From a bacterium GBS-1 (GTDB lineage: Bacteria; Synergistota; GBS-1): a DNA stretch of 64,000 bases. Position 1 is the first letter of the stretch. Each line of letters starts with the position of its first letter. Positions 1-16,479 of this stretch are shown here, one piece after another. The position numbers and the translations under genes are program-made. The notes under the pieces are model-generated. The model was not told the origin of the DNA, did no database searches, and worked only from the letters and a program-made list of their open reading frames with translations. Where the stretch lies: assembly GCA_001443005.1 (NCBI GenBank), contig LEKQ01000001.1, positions 594,542 to 658,541 on the forward strand, in the 5' to 3' direction.

Positions 1-344
1 CAGCATCTGATAGCTTCTTAATCAAGCGAGTTCCGTTAGTTGTAGTTAAAACAGCGCGCTTTCCCTTTATCATATGAGCGTTCTCCATAACATCGGTAGG
101 AGAGTTATCGAAGTCGAACCCAGGTATCTTAGCCCCTCCCCTCTCCCCCATTAGAAGGATATCGGGGTTTTCCCTCTTTAAGGACTTAGCTTCCCTTATA
201 GAAGATGTGATAAAGAGCGAGTCCCCACCATAAGCGAAGAAAGTAACTATAGTGGATGTGGCTCTTATTACATCCAGAGCTATCCATAGAAAATCCTCCT
301 TAGGCAAGGGCTCTGAGAGAGAAGACAAAAGGTAAACCTTCATA
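1..344 (-). CDS. 2-phosphosulfolactate phosphatase (ComB) family protein, N-terminal part only; C-terminus lies beyond the window start
   Basis: Not in the ORF track because it runs off the window. My own minus-strand translation from the ATG at 344 gives MKVYLLSSLSEPLPKEDFLWIALDVIRATSTIVTFFAYGGDSLFITSS..., with the ComB-type LDVIRATSTI motif. Confidence 0.55.
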
Positions 345-348: not shown

Positions 349-2094
349 TCAACCCCGCTTAAGGATGGCTCCCTGATCAGCCGAAGTGACTGCTTCAGCG
401 TACCGCGCTAAATATCCCCGGGTTACCCTCGGAGCGGGAGGCTTCCAGTTGGCTAGCCTCCTCTTTATCTCCTCTTCGCTCAGATGCAAATCAAGTTTCC
501 TCTCATCGATATTTATAGTTATGAGGTCCCCATCTTGAACGATAGCGATCGGCCCACCTGAAGCTGCCTCAGGAGAGACATGCCCCACACAGGGACCCCT
601 CGTGGATCCAGAAAACCTCCCATCGGTGACTAAAGCCGTGCTATCCCCTAAGCCCATACCGACGAGAACAGACGTAGCGGCAAGCATCTCTCGCATACCC
701 GGTCCCCCCTTAGGTCCCTCATAGCGTATAACGACTACATCTCCCCTCTGAACCTTGCCATCAAGAATGGCTTGAACTGCATTTTCACAGGACTCGAAAA
801 CCTTAGCTGGACCAGTGTGAACCCTCATGGAGGGCGAAACCGCAGTCTGCTTCACAACTGCACCATTGGGAGCCAGACTTCCCCTTAAAATTGCCAAGCT
901 ACCTTCCTCATGAACAGGGTTATCAAGAGAACGAATTACCTCTCTATTACGGTTTTTGGCTTTCTTCAATATATCCCTAAGAGTGCAAAGCATAACGCTC
1001 CTCTCATCTAAATGAAGTAGGGGAGAAAGCTCCTTCATAACAGCAGGAATCCCACCGGCATCATCCAGATCCTTAAGGGTATATGGACCAGAAGGCTTCA
1101 AATCAACCAAGTGCGGCGTAGTCCTACTTACCCTATCGAAGTCATCCAGTGTTATCCTTATGCCTATCTCATGGGCTATAGCGGGGATGTGAAGCAAAGC
1201 GTTGCTTGAACCTCCCACAGCCACAACCACTCGCATGGCATTCTCAAAGGATCTGTCTGTTATTATATCGGAAGGTTTAACACCTCTCTCTATGAGCCTC
1301 ATAACCTGAATCCCCGAAAGCTTGGCTTCCCTAAGCTTTTTAGAATATACAGCGTGAGTTGTCGCACAGCCCGGCAAAGTCAAGCCCAGGCTTTCAGCCA
1401 CACATGACATGGTGTTCGCAGTCCCCATCATGGAACATGAGCCTACAACAGGGCATATGCAATCCTCCATTTCCCTAAACTCCTCTTCTGTCAACAATCC
1501 ACGCCTATAAAGTCCCACAGCCTCCCTTATCTCATAGACAGCTAAGCTTCTACCCTTAAAAACCCCCGGGAGCATCGGTCCACCAGTAACCATGATAGAT
1601 GGAACGTTTATCCTTAACATCGCCATAAGCATACCAGGAACTATCTTATCACAGGCGGCTAAGAAGACCAAGCCATCTAACTGCTCCGCCTGAGCCACGA
1701 GCTCTATGGAATCAGCTATCACCTCTCTACTGGGTAGAACATAACACATTCCCTGATGCCCCTGGGCTATACCATCGCATATGGCGATGGTGTTAAACTC
1801 AAAGGGCACGCCCCCAGCCAACCTTATGCCCTCCTTAACCGCCTCAGCGATCTGGCGAAAATGCTTATGCCCGGGGTGCATCTCATTCCAAGAGTTCACA
1901 ACACCAACGAAAGGACGGTTGAATTCCTCATCGATCAACCCACAAGCTTTAAGAAGGGCACGCATACCAGCCCTATCTATACCCTCCACAACAACTCGAC
2001 TGCGCAATCCCACGGCTTCATTCACCCTCCCTAAAAACAAAGGAATCAGGGCTCCAAGACCGGAATGGTAATCAAGGCATTGGGTACAACCCAA
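349..2094 (-). CDS. IlvD/EDD-family dehydratase (dihydroxy-acid or sugar-acid dehydratase), paralog 1
   Basis: [37 protein letters not shown] and [11 protein letters not shown] motifs. True start is probably near 2025 (GTG), which would remove the overlap with the upstream gene. Confidence 0.85.
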
Positions 2095-3329
2095 ACTTTA
2101 GCATCCTTGCCGAGCTCAAAGAACGCTCGCTCCAGCGCCTCTTCAACAGTAGGCTCGTACTCTAGAAATAGCTCCCTTAAGATAGGCTCTGGAACAGCTG
2201 TCCCAACCATAAAGATCTTAGCCCAGTTTAAGGCCTTAGCCAGAACGAAGGCCTTGTGCTCCCCCGGTTCAAATCCCTCGCGATAAGCCCTCTCTAAAGC
2301 TTCCACAGGTGACCTTACGCTTTTCATCCAGTTATAGTACCCCTCATGCCCTATACCATCCTCACACGCCGCAGGGATTATTATTATCCCCCCCTTTCTG
2401 ACCAAAGGACGAGGTGCAAATATCAGGTTATTAACCGCCCTGGTCGCCTGATATAGGTCCCTGTCCTTAGGATATCTGGGTATCGCTATGATAATATCCC
2501 CCTGCTGACTAGCTTTAACCTCATAAATCTCTTTCGCAAACCTCACGCCCGCATCGTGAGCTTTCACCGGATCACCAGCGAACACCCCAAGAAGGCGCTT
2601 ATCGTCATCGAGCACCACGTTAACTATGAAGTCAAGGCCAAGAAAGCCAGCCGCTTCCTCAAGAAAACGTCTAAAGAGGTTATCCTCGATCACACCCAAT
2701 CTGGTCTTAGGATGATCCAGCATGGCGATATTGTGCGTAGCAGAAATCGTGCGAACGCTTGCAACACCAACTGCAACGCTTTTAACCCCACCGCTGTACC
2801 CCGCAAAGAGGTGAGGTTCAATAACACCTGTCGCGATCCTTAAATCAGCCTCTGCTACGCTTTTATTTATCTCCACAGGTATGCCCTGAGATAGGGTGTT
2901 CCCCAAAAACTTAAGCCCCTCAGGGTTAAAGGCATTATGGTTCTCAACCTTGACTCTCCTTACCACCTCTTCACTATACATCTCCTTGAACTCCTCAATA
3001 GAATTGGGCCTGTGAGTACCAGTAGCAACAACTACACTGATATTCTCATCGGGTATCCCAGCTTCGTTAAGCTCCTTCAACAAAAGGGGAATGACTACCT
3101 CCTCACAAGCATATCTGGTTATATCGGTAGCTATGATGACCACCCTCTGCCCAGGCTTGGCTAAATCTCTTAGGGCTTTGCTCCCGATGGGATTTCTTAA
3201 GGCATCCTCAAAGGCAGAAACCACATCCTTAACCGGTGGGTACCTCTTCGGGTCAAGAACCCCCAAAAAATTCCTCTCAGGGATATTAAGCCTAAGAACA
3301 CTCCCCCTTAGGGGAATCTCGACTATCAA
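2046..3329 (-). CDS. LarA-like (DUF2088) nickel-pincer-dependent 2-hydroxyacid racemase/epimerase family protein
   Basis: 427 aa; overall resemblance to the LarA/DUF2088 family ([18 protein letters not shown] segments). Family assignment from memory of family features. Confidence 0.65.
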
Positions 3330-3358: not shown

Positions 3359-4417
3359 TCACATCCCCACAAGCTTTTTTGCCTCCTCTAAGGCCCTTAA
3401 GGCTCCTTCACCTAATGGTACGCCCTCCTTAAGCCTCTTGCACATGGTCCGATAGCTTCTCTCCCCCGGCAGAAGGATCTCATCCACGCCCTTAGCTCTC
3501 TTAGATCCCTTTATCATCTTTATGTATCCATCCACCTTTTCCTTGAACTCGTCAACCGGCATGAAGCTTTCGACTTTAATAGCCACCATAAAATTACCGA
3601 CGCCCATCGGCTTAGTAAAGTCCAAGAACATGGATTTTATATCTTTACCGTAAGAGGAACCAGTTAAGAGGCCACTTATTATGTCTATCACAATTGACAT
3701 CCCATATCCCTTGGCTCCCCCTAAGGGCAAAAGGGCTCCTTCTAGAGCCTTCTCCGGATCATCCGTGTGGTTTCCTTCATTATCCACAGCCCAACCGAAG
3801 GGGATTTTTTCACCCTTTCTTAAGCTCTCCTCTATCTTCCCTCTGGAAACAACGCTCGTTGACATATCCAAAACGATCGGTATCTCCCTACCTGCTGGTA
3901 TAGCAACTGCAAAGGGGTTCGTCCCTAGTACAGGCTCACAACCACCATGGGGAGCCATTAAAGCAGCTGTGTTAGTTAGAACGATGCCTATCATGTTTTC
4001 TCTCAGGGGCATCATCGCATAGTGACCCGCAATACCGATGTGATTCGTATTTCTAACGCCAGCGATAGCAACATCATTCTCCTTAGCCTTTTCTATACAC
4101 ATGGACATGGCCAGCTTTCCCGCAACCTGGCCAAGGCCATTATCTGCATCGATCAAGATAACGTTTCTTGATTCCCTTATAACCTTTATATTGGGTTTTG
4201 GATTTATAATCCCAAGCCTTATCCTCTTTACATAGGTGGGAAACCTAACTACACCGTGCGATTCTATTCCTCTTAAATCCGCTGCGACTATAGCCTCAGC
4301 TGTGTCAAGCGCATCCTGCTCTGGCACGCTCAAGCGCATCAGTACAGAGGAAAGGATCCCAATTAAATCCTCGTAAGGAACCAAAACCAAGGGAGCGAAA
4401 CCCTCCTTTAGGTTCAC
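3359..4417 (-). CDS. Ldh_2-family (malate/L-lactate dehydrogenase family 2; ComC/AllD-like) 2-hydroxyacid dehydrogenase
   Basis: N-terminal ADLRGIESHGVVRFPTYVKR motif typical of Ldh_2; 352 aa. Confidence 0.75.
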   Translation of the reverse strand: MNLKEGFAPLVLVPYEDLIGILSSVLMRLSVPEQDALDTAEAIVAADLRGIESHGVVRFPTYVKRIRLGIINPKPNIKVIRESRNVILIDADNGLGQVAGKLAMSMCIEKAKENDVAIAGVRNTNHIGIAGHYAMMPLRENMIGIVLTNTAALMAPHGGCEPVLGTNPFAVAIPAGREIPIVLDMSTSVVSRGKIEESLRKGEKIPFGWAVDNEGNHTDDPEKALEGALLPLGGAKGYGMSIVIDIISGLLTGSSYGKDIKSMFLDFTKPMGVGNFMVAIKVESFMPVDEFKEKVDGYIKMIKGSKRAKGVDEILLPGERSYRTMCKRLKEGVPLGEGALRALEEAKKLVGM

Positions 4418-5571
4418 ATCGTCGGACCTATTCTGGTTATCGCGAACTCACCATGACCAAGCTGCTCTGACTTAGTCATCTTTCCATTTATCACAGAAAG
4501 CATTTCCTTTATGATTCTGCGCCCAACCTCTTCAACCGTTTCGATCCCCAGTATTATAGTTCCTGCATTGATATCTATGTTATCGGACATCCTCTCCCAA
4601 GTCTTGGGATTACCAGTAATCTTTATAACCGGAGCAATGGGGCAACCAACGGGTGTTCCCCTTCCCGTGGAAAAGAGAACCAATTGAGCTCCACCTGCCA
4701 CCATGCCGCTCACCGACTGAACATCATGCCCTGGCGTATCCATTATCCACAGCCCTTTGCCCTTAGGCTGCTCCGCATATTCAACCACGCCTTGAATTGG
4801 AGACCTCCCAGCCTTAAGGATGCAACCAAGGGATTTTTCCTCTATCGTCGTTATACCACCTTCAATGTTGCCTCTCGTCGGCTGAGTCCCTCTTAAATCG
4901 ACGCCCATCTTCAAAGCGTCCTCTTCAGCTCTCTTTACGATCTCGTATATACGCTTAGCTACATCTTCGTTAACCGCTCGCTTGGCCAATATGTGCTCCG
5001 CCCCTATAAACTCGGGGGTCTCCGATAATATCGACGTTCCACCCGAGCTAACCACGAAGTCCGAAGCAACTCCCATGGCAGGGTTCGCCGCTATCCCAGA
5101 GGTGGCATCCGAACCACCGCACTCAAGAGCAATCACGATATGGGATAGATCTATGACCTCCCTCACCATCCCAGACAGATCCGAAAGCATGCTCTCAGCT
5201 ATGGCTATCCCCTTATCTATAGCCCTTAAGGTTCCACCTTCTTCCTGAATCACCAGGACCTCGACCTTCTTCCCCGACTCCGATATCCTCTCAGCCAACA
5301 TATAGGGATCGAGCTTCTCGCATCCGAGCCCAACCACCAGAACCGAAGCCACGTTGGGATTCTTACCAACCCCAACAAGGGTCCTCAGGGTTTGCTCATA
5401 GTCAACGCCAAGCTGTCCACATCCCTCATTATGAGTTATAGACACGCTTCCAGGAACACTCTTCGATATGGCTAAGACCACCTCATTGCTACAGACAACG
5501 CTCGAAAGTACAAGAAGGTGGTTTCTAATCCCAACTGAACCATCGGGCCTTATATAACCCCATAGTTTCAT
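4414..5571 (-). CDS. UxaA-family dehydratase large subunit (altronate/galactarate dehydratase C-terminal domain; SuyB-like)
   Basis: 385 aa matching the UxaA/GarD C-terminal region; 4-nt overlap with the upstream small subunit gene. Confidence 0.8.
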   Translation of the reverse strand: MKLWGYIRPDGSVGIRNHLLVLSSVVCSNEVVLAISKSVPGSVSITHNEGCGQLGVDYEQTLRTLVGVGKNPNVASVLVVGLGCEKLDPYMLAERISESGKKVEVLVIQEEGGTLRAIDKGIAIAESMLSDLSGMVREVIDLSHIVIALECGGSDATSGIAANPAMGVASDFVVSSGGTSILSETPEFIGAEHILAKRAVNEDVAKRIYEIVKRAEEDALKMGVDLRGTQPTRGNIEGGITTIEEKSLGCILKAGRSPIQGVVEYAEQPKGKGLWIMDTPGHDVQSVSGMVAGGAQLVLFSTGRGTPVGCPIAPVIKITGNPKTWERMSDNIDINAGTIILGIETVEEVGRRIIKEMLSVINGKMTKSEQLGHGEFAITRIGPTM

Positions 5572-5876
5572 CTCCCACCACCCTCTCCCTTAAGCAAGTC
5601 GCCTCTTCCCCTATTACTCACAACGTTATGAACATGCACCCAATCCCCAACCTCGATATCTCGCGTAGCCCTACCTATAACCTCACCGTACTTTATGACA
5701 TCGCCATCCTTTGGAATCCTCCTAACGGCAAACTTATGGCCAAAGGGTATGTCCGCGATCACCCTTACCTCCCTAGACTGGTTAGAGATTCTCACTAACG
5801 CTATCTCACCAGCTTGAATGTCTTCAAGAGCTGTAGCCACGTTATCTGCCCCATCAAGTAAAAGAGCCCTTTTCAT
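5568..5876 (-). CDS. UxaA-family dehydratase small subunit (SAF domain; SuyA-like)
   Basis: 102 aa; SAF-type segment IPFGHKFAVRRIPKDGDVIKYGEVIGRATRDIEVGDWVHVHN; overlaps the large subunit start. Confidence 0.7.
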   Translation of the reverse strand: MKRALLLDGADNVATALEDIQAGEIALVRISNQSREVRVIADIPFGHKFAVRRIPKDGDVIKYGEVIGRATRDIEVGDWVHVHNVVSNRGRGDLLKGEGGGR

Positions 5877-5891: not shown

Positions 5892-7775
5892 CTATAAAAG
5901 CCAGTCTAACCCTAGCTCGATAAGCTTCCAAGGTTGGGGAACGCCCTCTTCATCCCAACCAGACATAAGGTAATAAATCCTCTTGGCCTCCTCGAACTCC
6001 TCCCTAGTAACGAATCTACCCTCATGGATACCCCCTCGGAGAGGCATGTACATCTTTTCTGCCAATCTATCCTCCTTCGAATCCACTCCACTTCTAACGT
6101 TAAACACCCTCATCATGTTCAGTCTTCTTTCCCCAACCTTCATGAGCTCCCATAGGCTCACTTCCCAACCGGTCACCGCGCTAACGGCTTCGACCACCTC
6201 ACTGTAGTTTAAACCCCTTGTAGGAGCCATGCAAAACATGCATATATCGAGGGAGTTCAACATGCTATAAGCTATCATAGTGTAATAGGCGAACCTAACT
6301 TTTCTACCATCAAGATCGAACCAAGGTAATCTCTCATTGATACCCAAGATAGCTATTCTTTCAAGGTTAACGTCTGGAGCGTCAGGACCTATGCTTGGAT
6401 CATGTTCACTCGCCATGTGATCCGCTCCTATAGGACAAACAGAATAGACCAAAGCAAGGGACCTTTTAACCCTCGGCTCATGAGCGGGATACTCAACCCC
6501 TTTGCATTCAACGGCATACCTCTCCGCGTTTCTCCCTATAGCTTGAGCAGCCCTCCTCGACCCTTCAGCCAGAAGTCTCCCTATACCCTCTTTCTTAACT
6601 ATCTTCTCAATAAGGGGTATTACCACATCCTTGTTACCAAACCTCAACTCAAGCCCATCGGTCTCTTCCTCAGTTAATATTCCGTTCTCATAGCAATCCA
6701 TTGCAAAAGCTATAGTTCCTCCCAGGGATATAGTGTCTATGGTGTACTTATTGCAGAGCTCTATAGCCTTAGAGACGATATAGGGGTCATCCACCCCTAT
6801 GTAGGAACCTAAAGCAGCCATAGATTCATACTCCAGGCTGGTGTACTCTTGATCTATCTCAAATGGTTCTCTCGCTCCAACCAACCTCTTACATCTTACA
6901 GGACAAGCATAACACCCGGTCTTTTTCACATCCATTATGGTCTCTATGAAGTCACCTGCAATCTTATCCACACCATCAAATACCCCGCTTCTCCAGTTAA
7001 AGGTGGGTAGCTGCCCACCTGTGCTGAAGAGCTTGGTGGTTATGGTTGTCCCCCACTGGTGCAATCTAAGCTGACCTGGGTAGCTCTTAAACCTGGAAGC
7101 AAAATCCTTGGCTATCTTTACCAACTTACCTTCATCCTTAAACTGGGGTTTTCTCGTCCCCTTAACCACAATAGCCTTCAGCTTTTTAGAACCCATAACT
7201 GCTCCAAGTCCGCATCTACCATGCATATCATGAATATCACAAGCTATGCTTGCAAACCTAACGAGGTTCTCCCCACCTGGGCCTATTCCAAGAATCCTCA
7301 AGCCCCTTTCTCCTAACTCTTTCTCAACCTCTCTAAGAACATCTGCGTTGTGCTTCCCCCAAAGATGCGAAGCATCTTTGATCTCCACATTTCCATCCTT
7401 AACCCAAAGATAAACGGGTTTTGAAGCCCTTCCTTTAACCACTATCGCGTCCAATCCCGCAGACTTTAAGGCCACACCCCAAAATCCACCGGCCTCGCTA
7501 TCAGCTATACCACCGGTCAACGGAGAGACTGAAACAGCCGAATGCCTTGCGAACCCCGGTAAGGGAGCACCCGTCACCACGCTGGGAGCGAAAACTATCA
7601 CGTTCTCAGGAGAATAGGCATCCGTTCCAGGTTTAACGTACTTCAATACATAATAACTTCCAAGACATCCCCCACCTATATATTTCCTGAAAAAGGCCTC
7701 TCCCGGACTCTCATATTCAACCGCCATATTAGAGAGATCCACATGGGCTATCCTATCCCAAAAGCCATATCCCAC
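5892..7775 (-). CDS. aor: Aldehyde:ferredoxin oxidoreductase (tungsten-containing AOR family)
   Basis: 627 aa; AOR N-domain plus Fe-S/pterin-binding region (KPVYLWVKDG..., GPGGENLVRFASIACD, CYACPVRC). Confidence 0.9.
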   Translation of the reverse strand: MGYGFWDRIAHVDLSNMAVEYESPGEAFFRKYIGGGCLGSYYVLKYVKPGTDAYSPENVIVFAPSVVTGAPLPGFARHSAVSVSPLTGGIADSEAGGFWGVALKSAGLDAIVVKGRASKPVYLWVKDGNVEIKDASHLWGKHNADVLREVEKELGERGLRILGIGPGGENLVRFASIACDIHDMHGRCGLGAVMGSKKLKAIVVKGTRKPQFKDEGKLVKIAKDFASRFKSYPGQLRLHQWGTTITTKLFSTGGQLPTFNWRSGVFDGVDKIAGDFIETIMDVKKTGCYACPVRCKRLVGAREPFEIDQEYTSLEYESMAALGSYIGVDDPYIVSKAIELCNKYTIDTISLGGTIAFAMDCYENGILTEEETDGLELRFGNKDVVIPLIEKIVKKEGIGRLLAEGSRRAAQAIGRNAERYAVECKGVEYPAHEPRVKRSLALVYSVCPIGADHMASEHDPSIGPDAPDVNLERIAILGINERLPWFDLDGRKVRFAYYTMIAYSMLNSLDICMFCMAPTRGLNYSEVVEAVSAVTGWEVSLWELMKVGERRLNMMRVFNVRSGVDSKEDRLAEKMYMPLRGGIHEGRFVTREEFEEAKRIYYLMSGWDEEGVPQPWKLIELGLDWLL

Positions 7776-7810: not shown

Positions 7811-8827
7811 CTACTGAGGCAACCTTCTAATATCCCATATTTCCGGGTTAGCGATATTATCGGGCCTCTCTCCCCTTAATACAGATATGACGTTTTTACA
7901 AACCATTTTCGCCATATTAGAGAGCGTTTCTTCAGTATGGGCTGCCATATGAGGCGTAGCAACAACATTATCTAAAGTTAAAATGGGCTCATCAACGGAT
8001 GGGGGCTCTGGATCGAAAACATCCATACCAGCACCTGCTATGACCCCATCCCTAAGAGCCCTATAAAGTGCCCTTTGATCTATCACCGAACCCCTTGCAG
8101 TGTTAACAATTATAGCGTTTCTCTTCATCATGGAGAGCTCCCTTTCGCCTATGAACTTCTCGTTCTCCTTAGTAGCAGGTATGTGTATCGTTATAAAATC
8201 CGCATTTCTAAGAAGATACTCCAGATCTCCAACAAGCTCAGTATCCTCTAACCCCTCTTGCCTAAGAAGCTCTTCGTTAATATATGGATCATAGCCTATA
8301 ACTTTCATAGAAAAACCATACTTGCATATCCTGGCAACCTTTCTTCCGATGTTGCCTAAACCTATAACTCCAAGGGTCTTTCCTGAAAGCTCAAAGCTCT
8401 TAACCTGAAGCCTATAGTTGTAGTTTCCATAAACCCTAAGCTGAACACCCGCATCCCATATGTGCTTCGCAACCGCCATCATCAGACATACGGTATGCTC
8501 AGCAACCGCATTAGCATTCGAGCCCGGTGCATAAACCACTGGAATGCGGTAGGCATTGGCTGCTTCTAAATCCACGTTATCAACCAAAGCCCCATGTTTA
8601 CCTATGACAACGCATCTTTTAGCGGCTTCGATTATACTTCTACCTATGTAGGGATGAACCCTCACGATTATGCCATCATAATCCATAACCTTTTTCAAGA
8701 GATATTCCTCGTCAAGGCTTTCCGCAACATCAACCTTTATCTCCGCTTCTTCCAACATCTTAACCCCATCTGGGTGAATTTCCTGCATCAAAAGGACCCT
8801 TCTTTCAGCCATGATACCCCACCTCAC
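7811..8827 (-). CDS. D-isomer-specific 2-hydroxyacid dehydrogenase (NAD-binding, PGDH/GyaR-like)
   Basis: GKTLGVIGLGNIGRKVA Rossmann motif and catalytic-domain layout of D-2-HADH. Confidence 0.8.
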   Translation of the reverse strand: MRWGIMAERRVLLMQEIHPDGVKMLEEAEIKVDVAESLDEEYLLKKVMDYDGIIVRVHPYIGRSIIEAAKRCVVIGKHGALVDNVDLEAANAYRIPVVYAPGSNANAVAEHTVCLMMAVAKHIWDAGVQLRVYGNYNYRLQVKSFELSGKTLGVIGLGNIGRKVARICKYGFSMKVIGYDPYINEELLRQEGLEDTELVGDLEYLLRNADFITIHIPATKENEKFIGERELSMMKRNAIIVNTARGSVIDQRALYRALRDGVIAGAGMDVFDPEPPSVDEPILTLDNVVATPHMAAHTEETLSNMAKMVCKNVISVLRGERPDNIANPEIWDIRRLPQ

Positions 8828-8839: not shown

Positions 8840-9703
8840 TTAAAGTACCTTCCTTAAGATCTTCGGAATCTCCGATAGCTTAAAGGCTATCTTAGCTCCA
8901 GCATCCTCTAAAACCCTTAGCTTGCTATCCGCACTTCCCGTTTCCCCTTGTATAATGGCCCCAGCATGCCCCATTCTCTTACCCGGCGGAGCCAGTCTAC
9001 CCGCAATGAAGGCTATGACTGGTTTCCTCATGCGCCTTATAACAGCGCTCGCATCCTCCTCACGGCTTCCTCCTATCTCTCCCACGATAACTACAGCCTC
9101 AGTATCGTTATCCCTATCAAACATTTCCAAGATATCAGCTATGTCTACCCCGGTAACTGGATCAGCTCCAATACCCACAACGCTGCTTTCACCGAAACCC
9201 TCATCGTTAAGATATCCAGAGACCTCATAAGAAAGCGTCCCGCTCCTTGAGATGACCCCTACCTTCCCCGGTTTAAACATATTGCCAGGCATTATCCCAA
9301 GCTTACCTACACCGGGAGAGATTACGCCAGGGGTTGTGGGACCAAGCATTACGACGCCCCTCTTCCTCGCAACCTCCCTCATCTCCATGGCATCAGCTAT
9401 GGGAACATGCTCGGGAATAACTACAACAAGCTTTATACCAGCATCTATAGCTTCAAACACAGCATCCTTCGCAGCAAAGGGTGGAGCAAATATAACCGTA
9501 GCATTAACGCCAAACCTCTCTACCGTCTCCTTAACATCATCAAACACTGGAACACCATATACCGTCTCTCCCTTTCTCCCAGGCGTTACTCCTGCCAAGA
9601 TCTTCGTACCATACTCCAACATCCACCTCGTCTGTATGCTTCCCACCCTACCAGTTATACCCTGGACGATAGCCCTGGTCTCATAAGTTAAAAGTATTGC
9701 CAT
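8840..9703 (-). CDS. sucD: Succinyl-CoA synthetase alpha subunit-like (CoA-binding)
   Basis: 287 aa; SucD-type segments IVQGITGRVGS and GPTTPGVISPG; the HAGA motif contains the phosphohistidine. Confidence 0.85.
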   Translation of the reverse strand: MAILLTYETRAIVQGITGRVGSIQTRWMLEYGTKILAGVTPGRKGETVYGVPVFDDVKETVERFGVNATVIFAPPFAAKDAVFEAIDAGIKLVVVIPEHVPIADAMEMREVARKRGVVMLGPTTPGVISPGVGKLGIMPGNMFKPGKVGVISRSGTLSYEVSGYLNDEGFGESSVVGIGADPVTGVDIADILEMFDRDNDTEAVVIVGEIGGSREEDASAVIRRMRKPVIAFIAGRLAPPGKRMGHAGAIIQGETGSADSKLRVLEDAGAKIAFKLSEIPKILRKVL

Positions 9704-9708: not shown

Positions 9709-10860
9709 TTATCCCCTCTCCTTCTGAGATAAAATCTCCTTAAGCAGATCGATCGCTTTCTCCGTATGGAAAGTTTTTATCAAGTGCACTCCAGCGCTAC
9801 TTAATATCTCCCAGGCCTCTTCCTGTTGATTCCCAACCGCCTTAACCACGATGGGGACATCTTTCGCAAAGCTCTCCCTAGCCTGTTTAACTCCATTAGC
9901 TGCTTCTATAAGGGAGTTCACCCCACCATAAAGATTAATGAGAATTGCCTTTATATTGCCTCTCCTTAAAACGAGCCTTATTGAATCGTTTATGAGCTTA
10001 GCTGTTATTCCACCGCCAGTCTCAAGAAAGTTGGCCGGCCTTAAGCCCTCATCAGCCATCAAATCTACAGTATACATACCCAAGCCCGCACCGCTCGATA
10101 TGAGCCCTATATCTCCATCAAGCACAACATAGGACACACCTATCTCTTTCGCTTCTCTTTCCATATAATCCTCCACGTCGACCTTTTCCAGCTTAGAGAA
10201 ATACTCCTGCCTAAATAAAGCATTATCATCTACTTCTACCTTAGCATCAGCCGCAACGATTCTTCCATCCTTTAAAAGGCATAAAGGATTTATTTCCAAG
10301 ATCGTTAAATCATAGCGAACGAAGGCATCGAACATAGAAGCAGCTATGTGAGAAAGCTTTACCAAAAGCTCCCTCTCAAAGCCCTTTCCCCTCAAAGCTG
10401 ACCTTATCTCATACTCCCTTAAAGCTTCGCTCGGATATTTATCTATTCTCACGAGCCTCTCGGGAAAGAGCTTAACTATCTCCTCTATATCCATGCCACC
10501 GGCATCGCAGAACATGAAGGTACGCTTACCAGATCGCGTATCTATGGTTATCCCCATATATATCTCCCTAGCTATGTCTAAAGCCTCCTCTACAAGGAGC
10601 TTCTTAACTTTAAAACCCCTTATCTCCTTACCAAAAAGCTCAGAAGCAACCTCTTGAGCGGTTTTAGGATCATCCGCAGGCTTAATACCACCCGCCTTAC
10701 CCCTACCACCTATGGGGACCTGTGCCTTAAGCACAACCTTCTTCCCTATCCTCTCGAAAGCGCCGGAAGCTTCCGACGGAGCGCTAATTACTACACCCTC
10801 GGGAACATCTATGCCGATCAGCTTTAAAAAATCCTTCCCCTGATATTCTAAAAGCCTCAT
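9709..10860 (-). CDS. sucC: Succinyl-CoA synthetase beta subunit-like (ATP-grasp)
   Basis: SucC-type N-terminus MRLLEYQGKDFL; track ORF starts 11 codons upstream at 10893, so I trimmed to the internal ATG. Confidence 0.85.
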   Translation of the reverse strand: MRLLEYQGKDFLKLIGIDVPEGVVISAPSEASGAFERIGKKVVLKAQVPIGGRGKAGGIKPADDPKTAQEVASELFGKEIRGFKVKKLLVEEALDIAREIYMGITIDTRSGKRTFMFCDAGGMDIEEIVKLFPERLVRIDKYPSEALREYEIRSALRGKGFERELLVKLSHIAASMFDAFVRYDLTILEINPLCLLKDGRIVAADAKVEVDDNALFRQEYFSKLEKVDVEDYMEREAKEIGVSYVVLDGDIGLISSGAGLGMYTVDLMADEGLRPANFLETGGGITAKLINDSIRLVLRRGNIKAILINLYGGVNSLIEAANGVKQARESFAKDVPIVVKAVGNQQEEAWEILSSAGVHLIKTFHTEKAIDLLKEILSQKERG

Positions 10861-10870
10861 CTCTCTTCCC

Positions 10871-11410
10871 TCACCCTTTCTTGAATATATCAAAGGCAGC
10901 CCTTAAGGCTTTTAAGTTTAAATCCCTAGTAGCAGGAGGTACCCTATTAAGCATGGCAGCCTCGAGCGATTCCCTTTTTACTATTCCTGTTAATGAGACC
11001 AAAACCCCCAAAGCCACTATGTTCGCAGATAAAGGCTTACCTGTCTCCCTTATGGATATCTCTGTTATAGGAAGCTCGTATATCTCAACGTCAGAGCGAG
11101 GTTTGACCTCCTTGATATAAAGTGTATCAATGATGATTAATCCTCCCTCTTTGACGCTCTCACCGTATTTATCCAGCGCATCTTGAGTCATAGCAAGTAA
11201 TATATCTGGTCTTTCGATCTCTGGGTAGTTTATCTCCTCATCGCTTATGATGATCTCGGACCTACTTGCACCACCTCTTGCCTCGGGACCATAGGACTGA
11301 TTATGCGTAGCGTTCTTTCCCTCATAAATCACCGCAGCCTCCGCAAGGATAATCCCTGCGAGAACCAGACCTTGACCACCGTAACCGCTTAACACTATCT
11401 CCTTCCTCAT
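10871..11410 (-). CDS. 2-oxoacid:ferredoxin oxidoreductase gamma subunit
   Basis: 179 aa; POR/KOR/VOR gamma-type GYGGQG motif. Confidence 0.8.
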   Translation of the reverse strand: MRKEIVLSGYGGQGLVLAGIILAEAAVIYEGKNATHNQSYGPEARGGASRSEIIISDEEINYPEIERPDILLAMTQDALDKYGESVKEGGLIIIDTLYIKEVKPRSDVEIYELPITEISIRETGKPLSANIVALGVLVSLTGIVKRESLEAAMLNRVPPATRDLNLKALRAAFDIFKKG

Positions 11411-12235
11411 TTAACCTTCCCCACCTTCAGCTAATTTTCGCCTTAACTCCTCATAAAGCTCCGTATACTCTCTCTTCTCCTTATTAACGAAGAGCTCGCC
11501 TATCAAAAACTTATCCTTCATCTCCTCGAGACTATACCTTTGAGCCTGTTGAACTAAAACAGCATGTTCCTTCTGCCACATCAGCATCTCATAAGGAGTT
11601 CTCATCCTATTTCTTCTCCCATAACCTACAGGACATTGAGAGACAACCTCAATGAAGCTAAAGCCCTTATGAGCGATGGCCTTAGCTATAAGATCAGCCG
11701 TTAACTGAATATGATAAACGGTGCTTCTTGCGATGAAGGTCGCTCCTGCCGCCTCAACAAGCTTGCATATGTCGAAGGATGGTTCAATGTTGCCGTAGGG
11801 AGCTGTTGTAGCATAGGTACCTTGAGGGCTTAAAGGGGAATACTGCCCACCTGTCATACCATATATACTGTTGTTTATAAGTATTGTAGTTATGTCTATG
11901 TTCCTTCTAGCAGCGTGGATCAGATGATTTCCCCCTATCGCCGCACCATCGCCGTCTCCCGTAATAACTATCACCTTCATATCGGGACGCATCAACTTAA
12001 AGCCTGTAGCGAAAGCTAAAGTCCTACCGTGAGTCGTTTGAATGGTGTTAAAGTCCACTATCACGTTGGTCCTTGCCGAACAGCCGATCCCGGTGAAAAG
12101 GACGATTTCATCCTTGCTCAACCCAAGCTTATCAACCGCCATGATCAAAGCCCTCACCACTGAACCGTTACCACAGCCCGGACACCATATATGAGGAAGC
12201 TTGCTTAACCTTAGATACTTCTTTATATCAAGCAT
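11411..12235 (-). CDS. korB: 2-oxoacid:ferredoxin oxidoreductase beta subunit (TPP-binding)
   Basis: CPGCGNG and TGDGD TPP-binding motifs; start trimmed to the internal ATG. Substrate (2-oxoglutarate vs pyruvate vs branched-chain) is not determinable from sequence. Confidence 0.8.
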   Translation of the reverse strand: MLDIKKYLRLSKLPHIWCPGCGNGSVVRALIMAVDKLGLSKDEIVLFTGIGCSARTNVIVDFNTIQTTHGRTLAFATGFKLMRPDMKVIVITGDGDGAAIGGNHLIHAARRNIDITTILINNSIYGMTGGQYSPLSPQGTYATTAPYGNIEPSFDICKLVEAAGATFIARSTVYHIQLTADLIAKAIAHKGFSFIEVVSQCPVGYGRRNRMRTPYEMLMWQKEHAVLVQQAQRYSLEEMKDKFLIGELFVNKEKREYTELYEELRRKLAEGGEG

Positions 12236-13373
12236 GGCTAAACACCTCTTTAATCGCATCAACTATCTCCCAAGGAGATATCATCTTGCCATCAACCCTA
12301 TTAATTCTAACAGCTTTCCTACAAATGCATCTTTCCACCTCTCCTACAAGCTGCCCCATGTTCATCTCAGGCACGACAACAACCTTAGCTCTTTTCGCAT
12401 ACCCCTCTACAACTTCGCCAGGGAAAGGCCAAAGGGTTTGTAACTGCAAAAGCCCAGCTCTTATCCCGCCCTCCCTCAGCATGTTAACTGCATCCTTGGC
12501 AGACCTCGCTGTACACCCATAGGCTACGATAAGCACGTCAGAATCCTCAACCCTATAGGTCTTATAATAAGTTATCTCCTTCCTATAAAACTCTATCTTC
12601 TTGTGAAGTCTCCTTATAAGCTCATTCGCCACCTTATGGTTATATGTTGCTGGGAAGCCCTCCTCATCATGTACATTACTAGTTACGTGATATCTGTACC
12701 CCTTACCGCGATAGGCGAAATCAGGAACACCGTCAGGCCCAGCGGCAAAAGGCTTATATTGCTCAGGCGGCAAGTTAGTAACTCTCCTATTAACTATCCT
12801 TATCCTGCTCGGATCTGGCAAAGTTACCTTCTCCCTTACGTGACCAACCACCGCATCGGAAAGAAGGATCACCGGATTTCTAATGAGCTCAGATATATTA
12901 AAGGCCTCTATAGTTAACTCAAAGGCCTCTTGAACCGTAGCAGGGCATAAGACAACTATAGGATGGTCTCCATGCGTTCCCCACCTCGCCTGCATGACAT
13001 CTCCCTGCGCAGGAAGGGTCGGTAAACCCGTGCTCGGCCCACCCCTTTGCACATCCACTATGACGCAAGGAATGTCAACTATTGTGGCATATCCCAAGTT
13101 CTCCTGCATTAAGGTAAATCCAGGACCACTCGTTGCAGTCATGGCCTTAAAACCAGCCATAGATGCTCCTATAACCGCAGCGATGCTAGCTATCTCATCC
13201 TCCATCTGAATGAATACCCCACCTACCTGAGGCATCCTAAGAGCCATCATCTCGGCTATCTCTGTAGCTGGAGTTATCGGATAACCCGCGAAGAACCTCA
13301 CTCCAGCTAAGATGGCTGCCTCAGCTATAGCCTCATTACCTTGCATGAATCGCACATCCTCCTTAAGGCTCAT
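12228..13373 (-). CDS. korA: 2-oxoacid:ferredoxin oxidoreductase alpha subunit
   Basis: 381 aa; GNEAIAEAAILAGVRFFAGYPITP alpha-subunit N-terminus. Confidence 0.85.
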   Translation of the reverse strand: MSLKEDVRFMQGNEAIAEAAILAGVRFFAGYPITPATEIAEMMALRMPQVGGVFIQMEDEIASIAAVIGASMAGFKAMTATSGPGFTLMQENLGYATIVDIPCVIVDVQRGGPSTGLPTLPAQGDVMQARWGTHGDHPIVVLCPATVQEAFELTIEAFNISELIRNPVILLSDAVVGHVREKVTLPDPSRIRIVNRRVTNLPPEQYKPFAAGPDGVPDFAYRGKGYRYHVTSNVHDEEGFPATYNHKVANELIRRLHKKIEFYRKEITYYKTYRVEDSDVLIVAYGCTARSAKDAVNMLREGGIRAGLLQLQTLWPFPGEVVEGYAKRAKVVVVPEMNMGQLVGEVERCICRKAVRINRVDGKMISPWEIVDAIKEVFSHA

Positions 13374-13896: not shown

Positions 13897-15552
13897 TCAC
13901 TCCAGGGATCTTCTAACCGCTCCCTTTGACGCGCTCTCAACGAAAAGCCTATAATATCTCAGGTAGCTGTTTTCAGGTATAAAGGAGCGATTGACCTCCT
14001 GTACCTCTCCTTTTCTCCTTTTATATTCTTCCTCTGATATCAATAGGTCTACCCTCTTCCTCCCGAGGTCTATCCTTATAACATCACCATCCCTAACTAT
14101 GGAGAGCGGTCCTCCTGCCGCCGCCTCAGGGGAAACATAAGCTATAGAGATGCCGTAAGAAGCCCCGCTAAGCCTGCCATCGGTTATGAGTGCAACGTTC
14201 TTATATCTATTTATTATCTCAACACACCTATGAAGCTCCCTCATGCCCGGACCTCCACAAGGCCCCTCGTATCTTATGATGATAACCTCCCCATCCTTAA
14301 GGTCATTGCTTGATGCATACTCCATAAACTCATCCTCCGAGTTAAATACCCTAGCTACCCCTTCAAAGGGATCCTTCAAAACGTCCACCAGCGCAGACAC
14401 CTTAAGCAGGGCTCCATCAGGAGCAAGGTTTCCTCTCAAGACTTTTATAGCTCCACCCTTAGCTATGGGGTCGGAAACCGATCTTATGATTGACTTCAAA
14501 GGCCTGAATCCCTCACTCTTCCCAATGATATCCCTCCAGGTATCGTTAAGGACCGTCTTTCTATCAAGGTTAAGATAATCCTTTAGTTCTCTTATCAATG
14601 CAACCACTCCGCCAGAAAAATACAGATCTATAACGGTATTCTCGTCGCTATTGGGAGTAACTTGAGCAATCAGGGGAACACTCTCGCTTATCCTCTCAAA
14701 ATCCTCCATGCTTATCTCTATCCTTAGCTCATGAGCTATGGCAGGAATGTGAAGAACAGCGTTTAGAGAACCACCTATAGCCATAACTACAGCTATTGCA
14801 TCCTCAAAAGCTTCCCTCGTCATTATCGCCGAAGGTTTCAAGCCCATCTCTATTAAGCGAACAGCTTGCTCTCCGGTTAATCTAGCTAAGTTATATCTCT
14901 GACTTGTTCCCGCTGGAGTTAAAGCTGACCCTGGCAATCCCACACCCAAAACCTCAGCTACTATACACATGGTATTTGCCGTTCCCAAAAATGGGCAAAC
15001 ACCTGGACCAGGATAATACCTCTCCGTGATGTCAAGCAGCTCATCCTCGGAGACCTTACCCTCAAGAAAGCTCCTTCTCGCCATCTTGGACTCCTTAGGC
15101 TTGATATAGTTGCACATCGGTCCTGCTCCCAACCAAATAGAGGGAAGGTCTATCCTAGCCATAGCCATAAGCATACCAGGGACGATCTTGTCGCAGGAGG
15201 AGAGAAAAACCAAACCATCGAATATATCGTGTCCCTTCACCATAGATTCTATCGAATCAGCGATCAACTCCCTGCTTGGGAGGCTATATTTCATGCCCTT
15301 ATGCCCCTGAGCTATACCATCGCATATAGCTATCGTGTTGAACTCGATTGGAACTCCACCAGCCTTGTAAACCCCTTCTTTTACCTTCTCGGCCAGGTCT
15401 CTTAAAGGGACATGCCCAGGGACTATTTCGTTCCAAGAGTTGACTATACCTACTATGGGCTTGTTAAGATCCGCTCGGGAAAAACCACAAGAAATTAGAT
15501 GCCCCTTTATAAGCTGTCTAACGTAGTTCGGAAAAGCACTCAATCGGTTCAT
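13897..15552 (-). CDS. IlvD/EDD-family dehydratase, paralog 2
   Basis: [30 protein letters not shown] and [11 protein letters not shown] motifs; 551 aa. Confidence 0.85.
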   Translation of the reverse strand: MNRLSAFPNYVRQLIKGHLISCGFSRADLNKPIVGIVNSWNEIVPGHVPLRDLAEKVKEGVYKAGGVPIEFNTIAICDGIAQGHKGMKYSLPSRELIADSIESMVKGHDIFDGLVFLSSCDKIVPGMLMAMARIDLPSIWLGAGPMCNYIKPKESKMARRSFLEGKVSEDELLDITERYYPGPGVCPFLGTANTMCIVAEVLGVGLPGSALTPAGTSQRYNLARLTGEQAVRLIEMGLKPSAIMTREAFEDAIAVVMAIGGSLNAVLHIPAIAHELRIEISMEDFERISESVPLIAQVTPNSDENTVIDLYFSGGVVALIRELKDYLNLDRKTVLNDTWRDIIGKSEGFRPLKSIIRSVSDPIAKGGAIKVLRGNLAPDGALLKVSALVDVLKDPFEGVARVFNSEDEFMEYASSNDLKDGEVIIIRYEGPCGGPGMRELHRCVEIINRYKNVALITDGRLSGASYGISIAYVSPEAAAGGPLSIVRDGDVIRIDLGRKRVDLLISEEEYKRRKGEVQEVNRSFIPENSYLRYYRLFVESASKGAVRRSLE

Positions 15553-15588
15553 TCAAGATCAACTCCCTCCATGAAGCGAAAATGGCTT

Positions 15589-16479
15589 TCATAGCAAACC
15601 AAGCCTCCTTAAGCCCTCTTTTATCTTTTCCCTTACCTCTTCGCTCGCTGGTCTGAAGGGTTCTCTCGGATACATCTTTATCCCGCGTAGGTTAACCATG
15701 GTATAAGCTCCTACGGTAGTGGTATTAGCGAGCCTCATAAGGTCTCTAACGGCCATCACCCTATTGTGAACCTCTATCACCTTATCCTTAGGGGCACCGC
15801 TCATCACCACATCATAAAGCTCCTTACAAAGCTCTGGAAAAGCGTTACCCAACCCTGGAATAAAGGCTTTGATGCCCAAAGAGGACGCAGGAACAAACAG
15901 AGCCTCGGTTCCTAAAACCACATCGAAGCCTTCTTTTTCTACCTTTCTCTTGAAATCCGATAGGACCATCAAATCGAAGCTACTATCCTTAACACCATGC
16001 ACACCTATATCCGCCAACCTCTTAAGCAAGCCCACGCTAACGGCATACCCGACAGTTTTGGGATTGTTATAAACATAAACAGGCACATTAACTGCATCAA
16101 CGATTCTTTTGAAATAAAATAAGACATCCTCCTCGGCATGATGATAGTAGAAAGGAGGAACCGCTGAAACAGCATCAGCACCTATCTCCTCAGCGTGTTT
16201 AGCGAGCTCAACAGCATCCCTCGTGCTTATGCTTCCCACATGAACAATAACCGGGACCCTCCCCCCGACCTCCTTCACAATTATCTCCGCAACCCTCTTT
16301 CTCTCCTCGAGGCTAAGCAAAGGTCCGCAGCCATAGGTCCCAAGGATGAAAAGGCCATCCACCGTCCCTAAAAGGAAGCTCGTAAAATCCCTCAAAGCTC
16401 CCTCATCTATATCGCCGTTTGCATCGAAGGGAACGATCATCGGCGGAATTACCCCTCTCAACTGGGTGATACCCATCAA
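15589..16479 (-). CDS. DapA/NAL-family class I aldolase or dehydratase (dihydrodipicolinate synthase family; 2-keto-3-deoxy-acid aldolase-like)
   Basis: 296 aa; GVIPPMIVPF..DGLFILGTYGCGPLLSLEER layout typical of DHDPS/KDG-aldolase family. Confidence 0.8.
   Translation of the reverse strand: MMGITQLRGVIPPMIVPFDANGDIDEGALRDFTSFLLGTVDGLFILGTYGCGPLLSLEERKRVAEIIVKEVGGRVPVIVHVGSISTRDAVELAKHAEEIGADAVSAVPPFYYHHAEEDVLFYFKRIVDAVNVPVYVYNNPKTVGYAVSVGLLKRLADIGVHGVKDSSFDLMVLSDFKRKVEKEGFDVVLGTEALFVPASSLGIKAFIPGLGNAFPELCKELYDVVMSGAPKDKVIEVHNRVMAVRDLMRLANTTTVGAYTMVNLRGIKMYPREPFRPASEEVREKIKEGLRRLGLL

Follow-up and report, generated by a model that had tools for sequence, protein, structure and literature searches.

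The open reading frame at 2046-3329 of the 64-kb stretch of DNA analysed here (the window) was ascribed in a first-pass annotation to the LarA family of NPN-dependent 2-hydroxyacid racemases and epimerases, and it lies among genes encoding catabolic enzymes, including dehydratases (Table 1). This raises the question of which 2-hydroxy acid the predicted protein, hereafter called window LarA, would invert, and for which of its neighbours. About half of the LarA homologues have no assigned substrate.

Table 1 Predicted features of the window at and around the LarA homologue
Feature	Position	Strand	Remarks
ComB-like (PF04029) phosphatase, first 114 codons	2..343	-	Directly downstream of IlvD; gene cut by the window edge
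IlvD-type dihydroxy-acid/sugar-acid dehydratase	349..2094	-	TIGR00110, 775 bits (cut-off 618)
LarA-family NPN-dependent 2-hydroxyacid racemase/epimerase	2046..3329	-	427 aa, uncharacterised malate-racemase-like subgroup
Active-site residues of the LarA ORF	2046..3329		D69, R72, H106, H173, K183, H199, Y293, Q294, R297; pocket L174, F175, H358, K359
Ldh_2-family malate/L-lactate/sulfolactate-type dehydrogenase	3359..4417	-	NF040650 (ComC), 329.4 bits (cut-off 500)
Split UxaA/GarD dehydratase, large subunit	4414..5571	-	GD_AH_second + GD_AH_C, 385 aa
Split UxaA/GarD dehydratase, small SAF-domain subunit	5568..5876	-	102 aa, Pfam
Aldehyde:ferredoxin oxidoreductase (tungsten/molybdenum AOR family)	5892..7775	-	Pfam
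D-isomer-specific 2-hydroxyacid dehydrogenase, phosphoglycerate dehydrogenase/glyoxylate reductase-like	7811..8827	-	Profile matches
ADP-forming succinyl-CoA-ligase-type alpha subunit	8840-9703	-	Passes TIGR01019
ADP-forming succinyl-CoA-ligase-type beta subunit	9709-10893	-	Profile matches
2-Oxoacid:ferredoxin oxidoreductase gamma, beta and alpha subunits	10871..13373	-	Closest to 2-oxoglutarate synthase

Identity and fold of the LarA homologue

The assignment to the LarA family was confirmed by Pfam (Lar_N, E 2.2e-67, profile positions 6-203 of 204; LarA_C, E 3.2e-19), by matches of residues 3-421 to solved LarA and Mar2 structures (E 1e-73 to 1e-65) and by an AlphaFold model (pLDDT 90.1, pTM 0.88), which superposed on 9eid, 5huq and 2yjg with TM-scores of 0.91-0.92. 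The open reading frame is intact, with a TTG start codon preceded by a AAAGGCAGG-type ribosome-binding site and a TGA stop codon at 2048-2046, and the identical protein is present on nine independent metagenome contigs. The product is a genuine, full-length member of the LarA superfamily, and its family membership, fold, active-site conservation and conserved synteny are shown here.

The best structural matches, namely the lactate racemases of L. plantarum (5HUQ) and T. thermosaccharolyticum (2YJG) and the broad-spectrum LarA from Isosphaera pallida (9EIA/9EID), have 33-34 % amino acid sequence identity with window LarA, and identity with the characterised LarA groups is 31-36 %. None of the NCBIfam equivalog cut-offs was reached. 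The best match was the model of the LarAH6 malate racemases (400.8 bits, cut-off 500); the models of the LarAH5 malate racemases (360.1 bits, cut-off 462) and of lactate racemase sensu stricto (NF033504, 360 bits, cut-off 460) scored lower, and the hexonate-epimerase model gave 51 bits. Clustering at 90 % leaves at least 120 sequences in the subgroup to which window LarA belongs. A 542-amino-acid LarA-SAF "fusion" (P0010) was found on one contig, but as the adjoining genes on the same contig are fragmented, suggesting indel errors, it was discounted as Rosetta-stone evidence.

Active site

The NPN-tethering lysine, the nickel-binding histidine and Arg75 of LarA (K184, H200 and R75) correspond to K183, H199 and R72 in window LarA, and the catalytic histidine pair H108 and H174, with D72, to H106, H173 and D69. 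The Lys tether, the nickel-binding His and the two catalytic His are thus at the same positions as in the lactate and broad-spectrum LarA enzymes. The first-pass annotation had proposed that the NPN-binding lysine and the catalytic histidines be checked for conservation; K183, H106 and H173 are present, and no variation at the NPN-binding or catalytic positions was seen among 120 homologues, down to 46 % identity. In substrate-bound LarA structures the carboxylate is bound by R73, Q295 and K298 together with the two histidines, and the C-alpha substituent is contacted by residues 174, 175, 356 and 357. The carboxylate binders Tyr294 and Gln295 of LarA are conserved as Y293 and Q294, and Lys298 is replaced by Arg297 in window LarA and in all 120 homologues, with the charge retained. 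The signature across the homologues reads D R H H [L F] K H Y Q T R, with H358 and K359.

The side-chain pocket of window LarA is composed of L174, F175, H358 and K359, the last two within the motif PGEHKAF. LarA has Phe-Phe-Trp-Thr at these positions, and the I. pallida enzyme has Leu-Met-Trp-Gln. In malate racemases His or Gln and Lys occupy the positions of LarA W358 and T359, the Lys having been proposed to bind the second carboxylate, and the same combination is present in window LarA. The G-x-H-K-A-[F/Y] loop which directs the His-Lys pair toward the substrate side chain is common to window LarA, Mar2/LarAH6 from T. thermosaccharolyticum (PDB 6D6Z/7S91) and Mar1/LarAH5 from D. hafniense (Dhaf_4417). 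One half of the pocket is hydrophobic and the other cationic, a composition shared with the malate racemases, which makes it most likely that the substrate has a further group of acidic or strongly polar character. Window LarA nevertheless has only 32-36 % identity with the malate racemases and misses both of their equivalog cut-offs. It has Leu174 after the second catalytic His, where malate racemase groups 4, 5 and 6 have Gln, Tyr or His, and Thr296-Arg297 in place of their Gln297-Lys298. No group with the Thr-Arg signature was found among the listed rows of Dataset S1 (Desguin 2020).

Cofactor biosynthesis genes

The reported absence of larB, larC and larE from the window was borne out, since Pfam scans of essentially all open reading frames of at least 120 amino acids in the 64 kb detected no LarB, LarC or LarE family member, and tblastn with a LarC protein gave no match in the window. 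When 98 loci were searched with LarC by tblastn, nothing was found beside members of the window LarA clade, and LarC adjoined only distant Dehalococcoidia LarA homologues (33-37 % identity). Supply of NPN by larB, larC and larE located elsewhere in the genome is assumed. The lack of these genes in the window and beside close relatives would also be expected of a non-functional or cofactor-less relic in a genome without NPN biosynthesis, but this is very improbable considering the intact reading frame, the invariance of catalytic and cofactor residues in the 120 homologues and the recurrence of the identical protein on separate contigs. Nor are larBCE found in the neighbourhoods of groups 5 and 6, which are characterised malate racemases.

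Gene neighbourhood in the window and in relatives

The gene encoding window LarA is co-directional with the surrounding run of catabolic genes. The true start of the IlvD gene is probably an in-frame GTG near 2010, which follows a GGGAGG ribosome-binding site, so that the two genes would not really overlap. An aldehyde-acid intermediate of the putative pathway might be oxidised by the aldehyde:ferredoxin oxidoreductase. A second block, with IlvD/EDD, DHDPS, FGGY and SDR genes, lies 10 kb away.

Ten loci with a LarA of at least 55 % identity, from Synergistota, Peptococcaceae and other Bacillota genomes including metagenome-assembled ones, were regarded as close relatives. The most consistent partner of LarA was the D-2-hydroxyacid dehydrogenase (9 of 10 close relatives, and 24 of 42 in sub-clade B). 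The split UxaA/GarD dehydratase also adjoins LarA in nine close relatives, a TRAP/TAXI carboxylate transporter in at least seven, IlvD in five and the 2-oxoacid oxidoreductase in four. The transporters at related loci are of the TRAP, TAXI and Tct carboxylate/dicarboxylate types. The ComB-like gene and Ldh_2 are not beside LarA in most relatives, Ldh_2 being found beside the clade only in the window and in one other locus (L006). Relatives at 41-53 % identity have the same pocket residues, but DHDPS-type and HpcH-type aldolase genes are adjacent instead of the dehydratase, so that a single common substrate is not obvious. For several LarA homologues the gene context has predicted the substrate poorly.

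Sulfolactate as a candidate substrate

The first-pass annotation had described the flanking genes as IlvD/EDD, "ComC-like" and "SuyAB-like" and had suggested a sulfolactate or sugar-acid C2 racemase. The families themselves (IlvD/EDD, Ldh_2, split SAF + GD_AH) were retained, and Ldh_2 and the split SAF + GD_AH pair are indeed also the Pfam families of the SlcC/ComC and SuyAB systems of Chromohalobacter salexigens and Paracoccus, with which the locus would have in common the logic of stereo-inversion before beta-elimination. A direct 3-sulfolactate racemase would turn the (S)-isomer into the (R)-sulfolactate used by an adjoining SuyAB-type sulfo-lyase, replacing the two-dehydrogenase scheme of SlcC/ComC, and would be the first NPN-dependent one; no connection between LarA and sulfolactate was found in the literature searched, so that the reaction would be new. 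SuyAB requires the (R)-isomer, and sulfoquinovose breakdown yields (S)-sulfolactate, which is isosteric with malate and whose sulfonate could be bound by the His-Lys pocket. Ldh_2, split UxaA and ComB-like proteins, all families with sulfolactate-acting members, are moreover encoded in one gene run here.

The large dehydratase subunit, however, has a complete cysteine tetrad (C27, C51, C84 and C151, aligning with the GarD cysteines), and these four Fe-site cysteines are kept in all LarA-linked homologues, whereas SuyB, according to a published statement and a machine-read alignment, lacks three of the four (no Cys at 134, HAYGRLQ at 173, IGIEPEW at 208). The nearest annotated relatives of the large subunit are in sugar-acid or alpha-ketoglutarate-semialdehyde clusters, and a homologue with 55 % identity adjoins genes for DHDPS-like, FAH and alpha-ketoglutarate-semialdehyde dehydrogenase proteins. 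In a tblastn search of plasmids for a SuyB sequence, the matches were annotated solely as "UxaA family" or "altronate dehydratase". The pairing of a SAF protein with a GD_AH protein is the heteromeric layout of SuyAB, but L-fuconate dehydratase is heteromeric too, and the split architecture is therefore not diagnostic. As judged from its cysteines and from the genes around its homologue, the split UxaA/GarD neighbour is a dehydratase of the sugar-acid type.

The Ldh_2 protein scored below the ComC cut-off, and neither its linkage nor that of the ComB-like gene to LarA is conserved. Genes for a TauE/SafE exporter, a sulfite reductase or any other sulfonate-related function were absent from the window and from the related loci. 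Sulfite, which the lyase would release, is a strong competitive inhibitor of LarA and forms a covalent adduct with the NPN cofactor. Sulfolactate is thus an unlikely substrate of window LarA, and of the two suggestions the sugar-acid C2 epimerase fits better. The subgroup adjoins sugar-acid dehydratase genes in several phyla, for which inversion of an acidic hydroxy acid, rather than of sulfolactate, is most likely. The locus also cautions against taking a "SuyAB-like plus ComC-like" arrangement as evidence of sulfonate metabolism.

Malate and aldonates as candidate substrates

According to the published His-Lys rule, window LarA could be a plain malate racemase, with the dehydratases reflecting general C4-dicarboxylate metabolism. 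H358 and K359 fit the signature and the LarAH6 model was the best family match; a malate-type Ldh_2 dehydrogenase is adjacent, and in one relative (L008) a malic enzyme is encoded 6 kb from LarA. LarAH group 5, which racemised malate in vitro, has a 100 % association with COG2721 altronate dehydratase and TctA/TctC, and the window LarA clade is likewise linked to a COG2721 (UxaA) dehydratase and Tct transporters. This reading is nonetheless rather unlikely, as both model cut-offs were missed and three substrate-proximal positions (L175, T297 and R298) are unlike those of every malate racemase group. Malate cannot serve as substrate of either of the two dehydratases to which the gene is tightly and repeatedly linked, and this linkage speaks in favour of a 2,3-dihydroxy acid.

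The classic dehydratases of aldonates (monocarboxylic sugar acids) include UxaA-family and IlvD/EDD enzymes, and a GntE-like aldonate 2-epimerase could feed them in a Weimberg-like route to 2-oxoglutarate. The AOR, the 2-oxoglutarate-type oxidoreductase and the succinyl-CoA ligase of the same run, as well as the second IlvD/EDD block, would agree with such a route. An aldonate substrate is still improbable, because the GntE-type specificity positions are E, V/S, A and H compared with L, F, H and K here, the score with the hexonate-epimerase model was very low, and the transporters at related loci are of carboxylate/dicarboxylate types.

Proposed function

Inversion of a pathway 2-hydroxy acid, as the first-pass annotation had proposed, is probable from the family, the residues and the co-directional catabolic run. 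We consider it somewhat better than an even chance (approximately 0.55) that window LarA is a C2 racemase or epimerase for a dicarboxylic hydroxy or sugar acid of the tartrate, aldarate or malate type, serving the neighbouring dehydratases. The anionic side chain of the substrate, its identity and the order of the pathway steps are what we infer from this material. The configuration at C2 would be inverted by proton-coupled hydride transfer, in which His106 or His173 would accept the hydroxyl proton, the C2 hydride would move to C4 of the pyridinium ring and the planar 2-oxo intermediate would be reduced again on its opposite face. Arg72, Gln294 and Arg297 would hold the C1 carboxylate, with the C-alpha substituent in the Leu174/Phe175/His358/Lys359 pocket. 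Candidate substrates would be tartrate, which malate racemases epimerise as well, a C5 or C6 aldarate or its 2-keto-3-deoxy product, and malate. The association of LarAH group 5 with altronate dehydratase is a published precedent. Window LarA would supply the co-transcribed UxaA/GarD-type and IlvD-type dehydratases with the stereoisomer on which they act, the resulting 2-oxoacid would be oxidised by the adjoining 2-oxoacid:ferredoxin oxidoreductase, and ATP would be recovered by the succinyl-CoA-ligase-type enzyme.

A more specific version is put forward tentatively, namely that the clade consists of dedicated epimerases for tartrate- or aldarate-type sugar diacids or their 2-keto-3-deoxy products. 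These might act in an undescribed anaerobic, ferredoxin-linked route comprising the split UxaA, the IlvD-type dehydratase, the D-2-hydroxyacid dehydrogenase, the 2-oxoacid:ferredoxin oxidoreductase and the ADP-forming CoA ligase. Sugar diacids might thereby be converted as far as 2-oxoglutarate and succinate, with substrate-level phosphorylation and with no kinase encoded in the core operon. Should a sugar diacid prove to be the substrate, this would account for the hitherto puzzling association of LarAH group 5 with altronate dehydratase and would outline a ferredoxin-dependent fermentation of oxidised sugars in strict anaerobes such as Synergistota. The clade has an invariant Leu-Phe, Thr-Arg and His-Lys signature, and its synteny with the two dehydratases is unusually tight in different phyla; it is therefore a well-defined target in the search for a new NPN-dependent reaction.

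Other LarA-like proteins beside UxaA-type dehydratases

The NPN-dependent isomerase "group 22" (NF052515) is LarA-like, but has only the Lar_N domain and is of a different lineage, barely alignable with window LarA (E 1e-4 over approximately 170 residues). It is absent from the window, and elsewhere adjoins UxaA-type dehydratases, IlvD/EDD, carboxylate transporters and, once, LarC. Group 22 and the window LarA clade both occur around the same split UxaA at two loci (L010 and L018). A LarA-like gene beside a split UxaA on a Sporomusa termitida plasmid was considered as the characterised LarAH62 and rejected, since it encodes a group-22 protein. A Pseudosulfitobacter plasmid carries together genes for UxaA, a LarA-like protein, LarC, L-arabinonate dehydratase, DHDPS, an aldehyde dehydrogenase and a 2-hydroxyacid dehydrogenase.

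Identity and active site of the LarA homologue

The LarA-family gene is preceded by a AAAGGCAGG-type ribosome-binding site and ends with a TGA stop codon at 2048-2046. Its product matched the Pfam domains Lar_N (E 2.2e-67) and LarA_C (E 3.2e-19) nearly end to end, and residues 3-421 aligned with solved lactate racemases and with the malate racemase Mar2 (E 1e-73 to 1e-65). The AlphaFold2 model, predicted with 21 homologues as input (mean pLDDT 90.1, pTM 0.88), superposed on the LarA structures 9EID, 5HUQ and 2YJG with TM scores of 0.91-0.92 at approximately 33 % identity. An identical protein is encoded by nine independent metagenome contigs, and the nearest named relative, from a Synergistetes metagenome-assembled genome, shares 70 % identity. 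A chance ORF is ruled out, and Pfam matches, structural alignments and model superposition agree on the LarA homologue reported in the first-pass annotation.

Active-site equivalences were taken from pairwise alignments and from one that comprised the top 120 database hits. D69, R72, H106, H173, K183, H199, Y293 and Q294, which correspond to LarA D72, R75, H108, H174, K184 (the NPN tether), H200 (a Ni ligand), Y294 and Q295, are invariant among the 120. Of the residues called catalytic only one departs from LarA: Arg297, also invariant, replaces Lys298. The change keeps the charge and is probably conservative, since Lys298 is among the substrate-carboxylate ligands in substrate-bound structures. 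The loss of active-site residues, which the first-pass annotation had named as grounds for rejecting its reading, was thus not seen apart from this replacement. Judged from the aligned residues, the protein has all requirements for NPN binding and for proton-coupled hydride transfer, the mechanism established for LarA.

Contacts to the C-alpha substituent have been reported in LarA for F175, F176, W358 and T359, and the corresponding residues here are Leu174, Phe175, His358 and Lys359. According to a published rule, malate racemases have His or Gln followed by Lys at the last two of these positions, the Lys binding the second carboxylate. The residues of the pocket suggest that the substrate bears a second group that is anionic or strongly polar.

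Gene surroundings in the window

Genes of the window discussed in the text, the first nine in order from the window edge
Feature	Position	Strand	Remarks
ComB-like phosphatase	2-343	-	first 114 codons, truncated by window edge; directly downstream of IlvD
IlvD-type dehydratase		-	downstream of LarA; ilvD equivalog cut-off passed, 775 bits
LarA-family gene	2046..3329	-	intact ORF, 427 aa, TTG start
Ldh_2 dehydrogenase		-	first gene upstream of LarA
Split UxaA/GarD dehydratase	4414-5571 (large subunit)	-	SAF 102 aa, GD_AH 385 aa; upstream of Ldh_2
Aldehyde:ferredoxin oxidoreductase (AOR)		-	upstream of split UxaA/GarD
D-2-hydroxyacid dehydrogenase		-	upstream of AOR
Succinyl-CoA-ligase-type alpha and beta subunits		-	upstream of D-2-hydroxyacid dehydrogenase
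2-Oxoacid:ferredoxin oxidoreductase, three subunits		-	upstream of CoA ligase; closest to 2-oxoglutarate synthase
Second sugar-acid block	13897-21877	-	IlvD/EDD, DHDPS-like, FGGY kinase, SDR, TctABC
ORF without Pfam match (157 aa), UPF0261 protein, PEP-hydrolase-like protein	26524-29096	-	UPF0261/PEP-hydrolase-like pair adjoins second TctABC transporter and Fe-ADH

Between position 2 and about 28 kb every gene is encoded on the minus strand. With the longest-ORF start of the IlvD-type dehydratase (TTG at 2094), the gene would share 49 nt with the end of LarA. This overlap is an artefact of the longest ORF, because translation from an in-frame GTG near 2010, which a GGGAGG site precedes, yields a product of the size of the 558-aa IlvD orthologue in the related locus L006; the GTG is the likely start, without true overlap. 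The full-length copy of the ComB-like gene in locus L001 matched PF04029 (2-phosphosulfolactate phosphatase). As the first-pass annotation had stated, LarB, LarC and LarE were not found in the window, either when essentially all ORFs of at least 120 aa were scanned against Pfam or, for LarC, by tblastn.

Farther along the window is a second IlvD/EDD dehydratase, which at 581 bits falls slightly short of the ilvD cut-off. With it are a DHDPS-like protein, an FGGY kinase resembling gluconokinase and an SDR resembling gluconate-5-dehydrogenase/KduD; two TctABC transporters and an Fe-ADH also lie in this part. The family set of the second block is that of the published context of LarAH group 22, yet a group-22 LarA is absent from the window. 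GC skew is about -0.15 to -0.33 in nearly all 2-kb bins of 1-64000, where nearly all genes are on the minus strand; the exceptions, around 34-36 kb and 40-42 kb, are where plus-strand genes occur.

Subgroup and substrate alternatives

None of the NCBIfam equivalog models was reached at its cut-off, the scores being 400.8 bits for LarAH6 malate racemase (cut-off 500), 360.1 for LarA lactate racemase (460), 360.1 for LarAH5 malate racemase (462) and 325.9 for LarAH10 (540). Identity to the group sequences in Dataset S1 of Desguin et al. (2020) was 33-36 % for group 5, 34 % for group 6 and 31 % for group 23. The G-x-H-K-A-[F/Y] loop is common to the window protein and malate racemase groups 4-6, whereas LarA position 175 is Leu instead of Gln, Tyr or His, and positions 297/298 are Thr-Arg instead of Gln-Lys. 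By sequence comparison the protein belongs to a malate-racemase-like subgroup of its own, as yet uncharacterised. A plain malate racemase, with which the loop and the His-Lys pair would be compatible, is rather unlikely beside these differences, and an aldonate epimerase, as the nearby sugar-acid genes might suggest, is improbable for a pocket of this kind.

The first-pass annotation had described the neighbours as ComC-like and SuyAB-like and had proposed a direct C2 racemase of sulfolactate or of a sugar acid. According to Watanabe et al. (2019), four cysteines, a proposed iron site, occur in all UxaA/GarD-family enzymes, L-fuconate dehydratase being among the heteromeric members, except sulfolactate sulfo-lyase; in the machine-read alignment of their supplement, P. 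pantotrophus SuyB has no Cys at 134, HAYGRLQ at 173 and IGIEPEW at 208. The window GD_AH subunit, in contrast, has Cys27, Cys51 (HNEGCG), Cys84 (GLGCE) and Cys151 (ECGGSD) at the positions of the GarD cysteines, and all four are kept in all LarA-linked UxaA large-subunit homologues. Its closest annotated homologues (50-55 % identity) are 'UxaA family hydrolases', one of which, on a Priestia megaterium plasmid, is accompanied by DHDPS-like, FAH and alpha-ketoglutarate-semialdehyde dehydrogenase genes. Ldh_2 scored 329 bits against the ComC cut-off of 500, and genes for a sulfite exporter, a sulfite reductase or any other sulfonate function were found neither in the window nor in related loci. 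Sulfite inhibits LarA strongly and competitively, forming a covalent adduct with the cofactor, so an operon that releases it would suit an NPN enzyme poorly. A full-text literature search gave no paper in which LarA is connected with sulfolactate. Sulfolactate is therefore an improbable substrate; the earlier reading is supported in part, for the LarA homologue, the probable inversion of a pathway hydroxyacid and the lack of larBCE in the window.

Two extra cysteines, C250 and C310, are common to LarA-linked UxaA large subunits from anaerobes (the window and loci L006, L009, L016-L018 and L020) and are missing in the Priestia and Sporomusa plasmid homologues.

Conservation of the neighbourhood

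Contexts were collected by exact-protein look-ups and a scan of GTDB species genomes, and all ORFs were then clustered. Sub-clade A (LarA identity at least 55 %) comprises ten loci from Synergistota, Peptococcaceae and other Bacillota. The split UxaA/GarD dehydratase and the D-2-hydroxyacid dehydrogenase each adjoin LarA in nine of the ten, a TRAP/TAXI carboxylate transporter in at least seven, the IlvD-type dehydratase in five and the 2-oxoacid oxidoreductase in four. The usual order is transporter, LarA, SAF, GD_AH, D-2-hydroxyacid dehydrogenase, IlvD, ferredoxin and three oxidoreductase subunits. Ldh_2 is beside LarA only in the window and one other Synergistota locus, and the ComB-like gene only in the window organism, not being kept in relatives.

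Sub-clade B (42 loci, 41-53 % identity; Syntrophaceae, Thermodesulfobacteriota, Moorella, Pseudothermotoga) has the same pocket residues but no dehydratases. DHDPS-type and HpcH/HpaI-type aldolases adjoin LarA in 28 loci and a D-2-hydroxyacid dehydrogenase in 24, often with TctABC alongside. Dehalococcoidia homologues (33-37 % identity) have a different context again.

In locus L008, a long-read contig, a 542-aa ORF (P0010, 10001-11629) joins LarA to the SAF subunit; the fusion is probably an indel read-through, because adjacent genes are broken up, GD_AH into two pieces and DctM into several.

For LarAH group 5, whose tested member Mar1 is a malate racemase in vitro, Desguin et al. (2020, Table S1) give a 100 % association with COG2721 altronate dehydratase and a partial one with TctA/TctC; for several enzymes that study found no apparent link between activity and context. 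A second, very divergent lineage, NCBIfam group 22, also repeatedly adjoins UxaA-type dehydratases. In loci L010 (168-5227) and L018, one split UxaA is flanked by a LarA of the window clade and a group-22 NPN-dependent isomerase (521 bits, cut-off 400). On Pseudosulfitobacter pseudonitzschiae plasmid P5 (L096, 6650-10708), a fused UxaA-family dehydratase, a group-22 LarA-like protein and the nickel-insertion protein LarC are encoded in a row, adjoining L-arabinonate dehydratase, a DHDPS-like protein, an NADP aldehyde dehydrogenase and a 2-hydroxyacid dehydrogenase. This arrangement, found again on dozens of related plasmids, has essentially the same families as the window. With group 5, group 22 and the window clade all near UxaA, the LarA-UxaA linkage is recurrent, and the window adds a new LarA subgroup with conserved dehydratase synteny, which is no surprise in a superfamily known to be broad.

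Proposed function

Unlinked larBCE genes would supply the NPN. Arg72, Gln294 and Arg297 would hold the substrate C1 carboxylate, and His358 and Lys359 would bind a side chain bearing a carboxylate or similar group against Leu174 and Phe175. Synteny suggests that LarA may provide the C2 epimer taken by the UxaA-type and IlvD-type dehydratases, both of which are enzymes that form 2-keto-3-deoxy acids from 2,3-dihydroxy acids; the product would be oxidised by the ferredoxin-dependent oxidoreductase, and the CoA ligase would then make ATP. The protein is a clean target for finding a new NPN-dependent reaction, perhaps in an anaerobic sugar-diacid pathway. Speculatively, candidate substrates are tartrate (tartrates are also epimerised by malate racemases), C5/C6 aldarates, or their 2-keto-3-deoxy products, such as 4-hydroxy-2-oxoglutarate or 5-keto-4-deoxyglucarate. 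The 2-keto-3-deoxy acids would also suit sub-clade B, because aldolases replace the dehydratases there.
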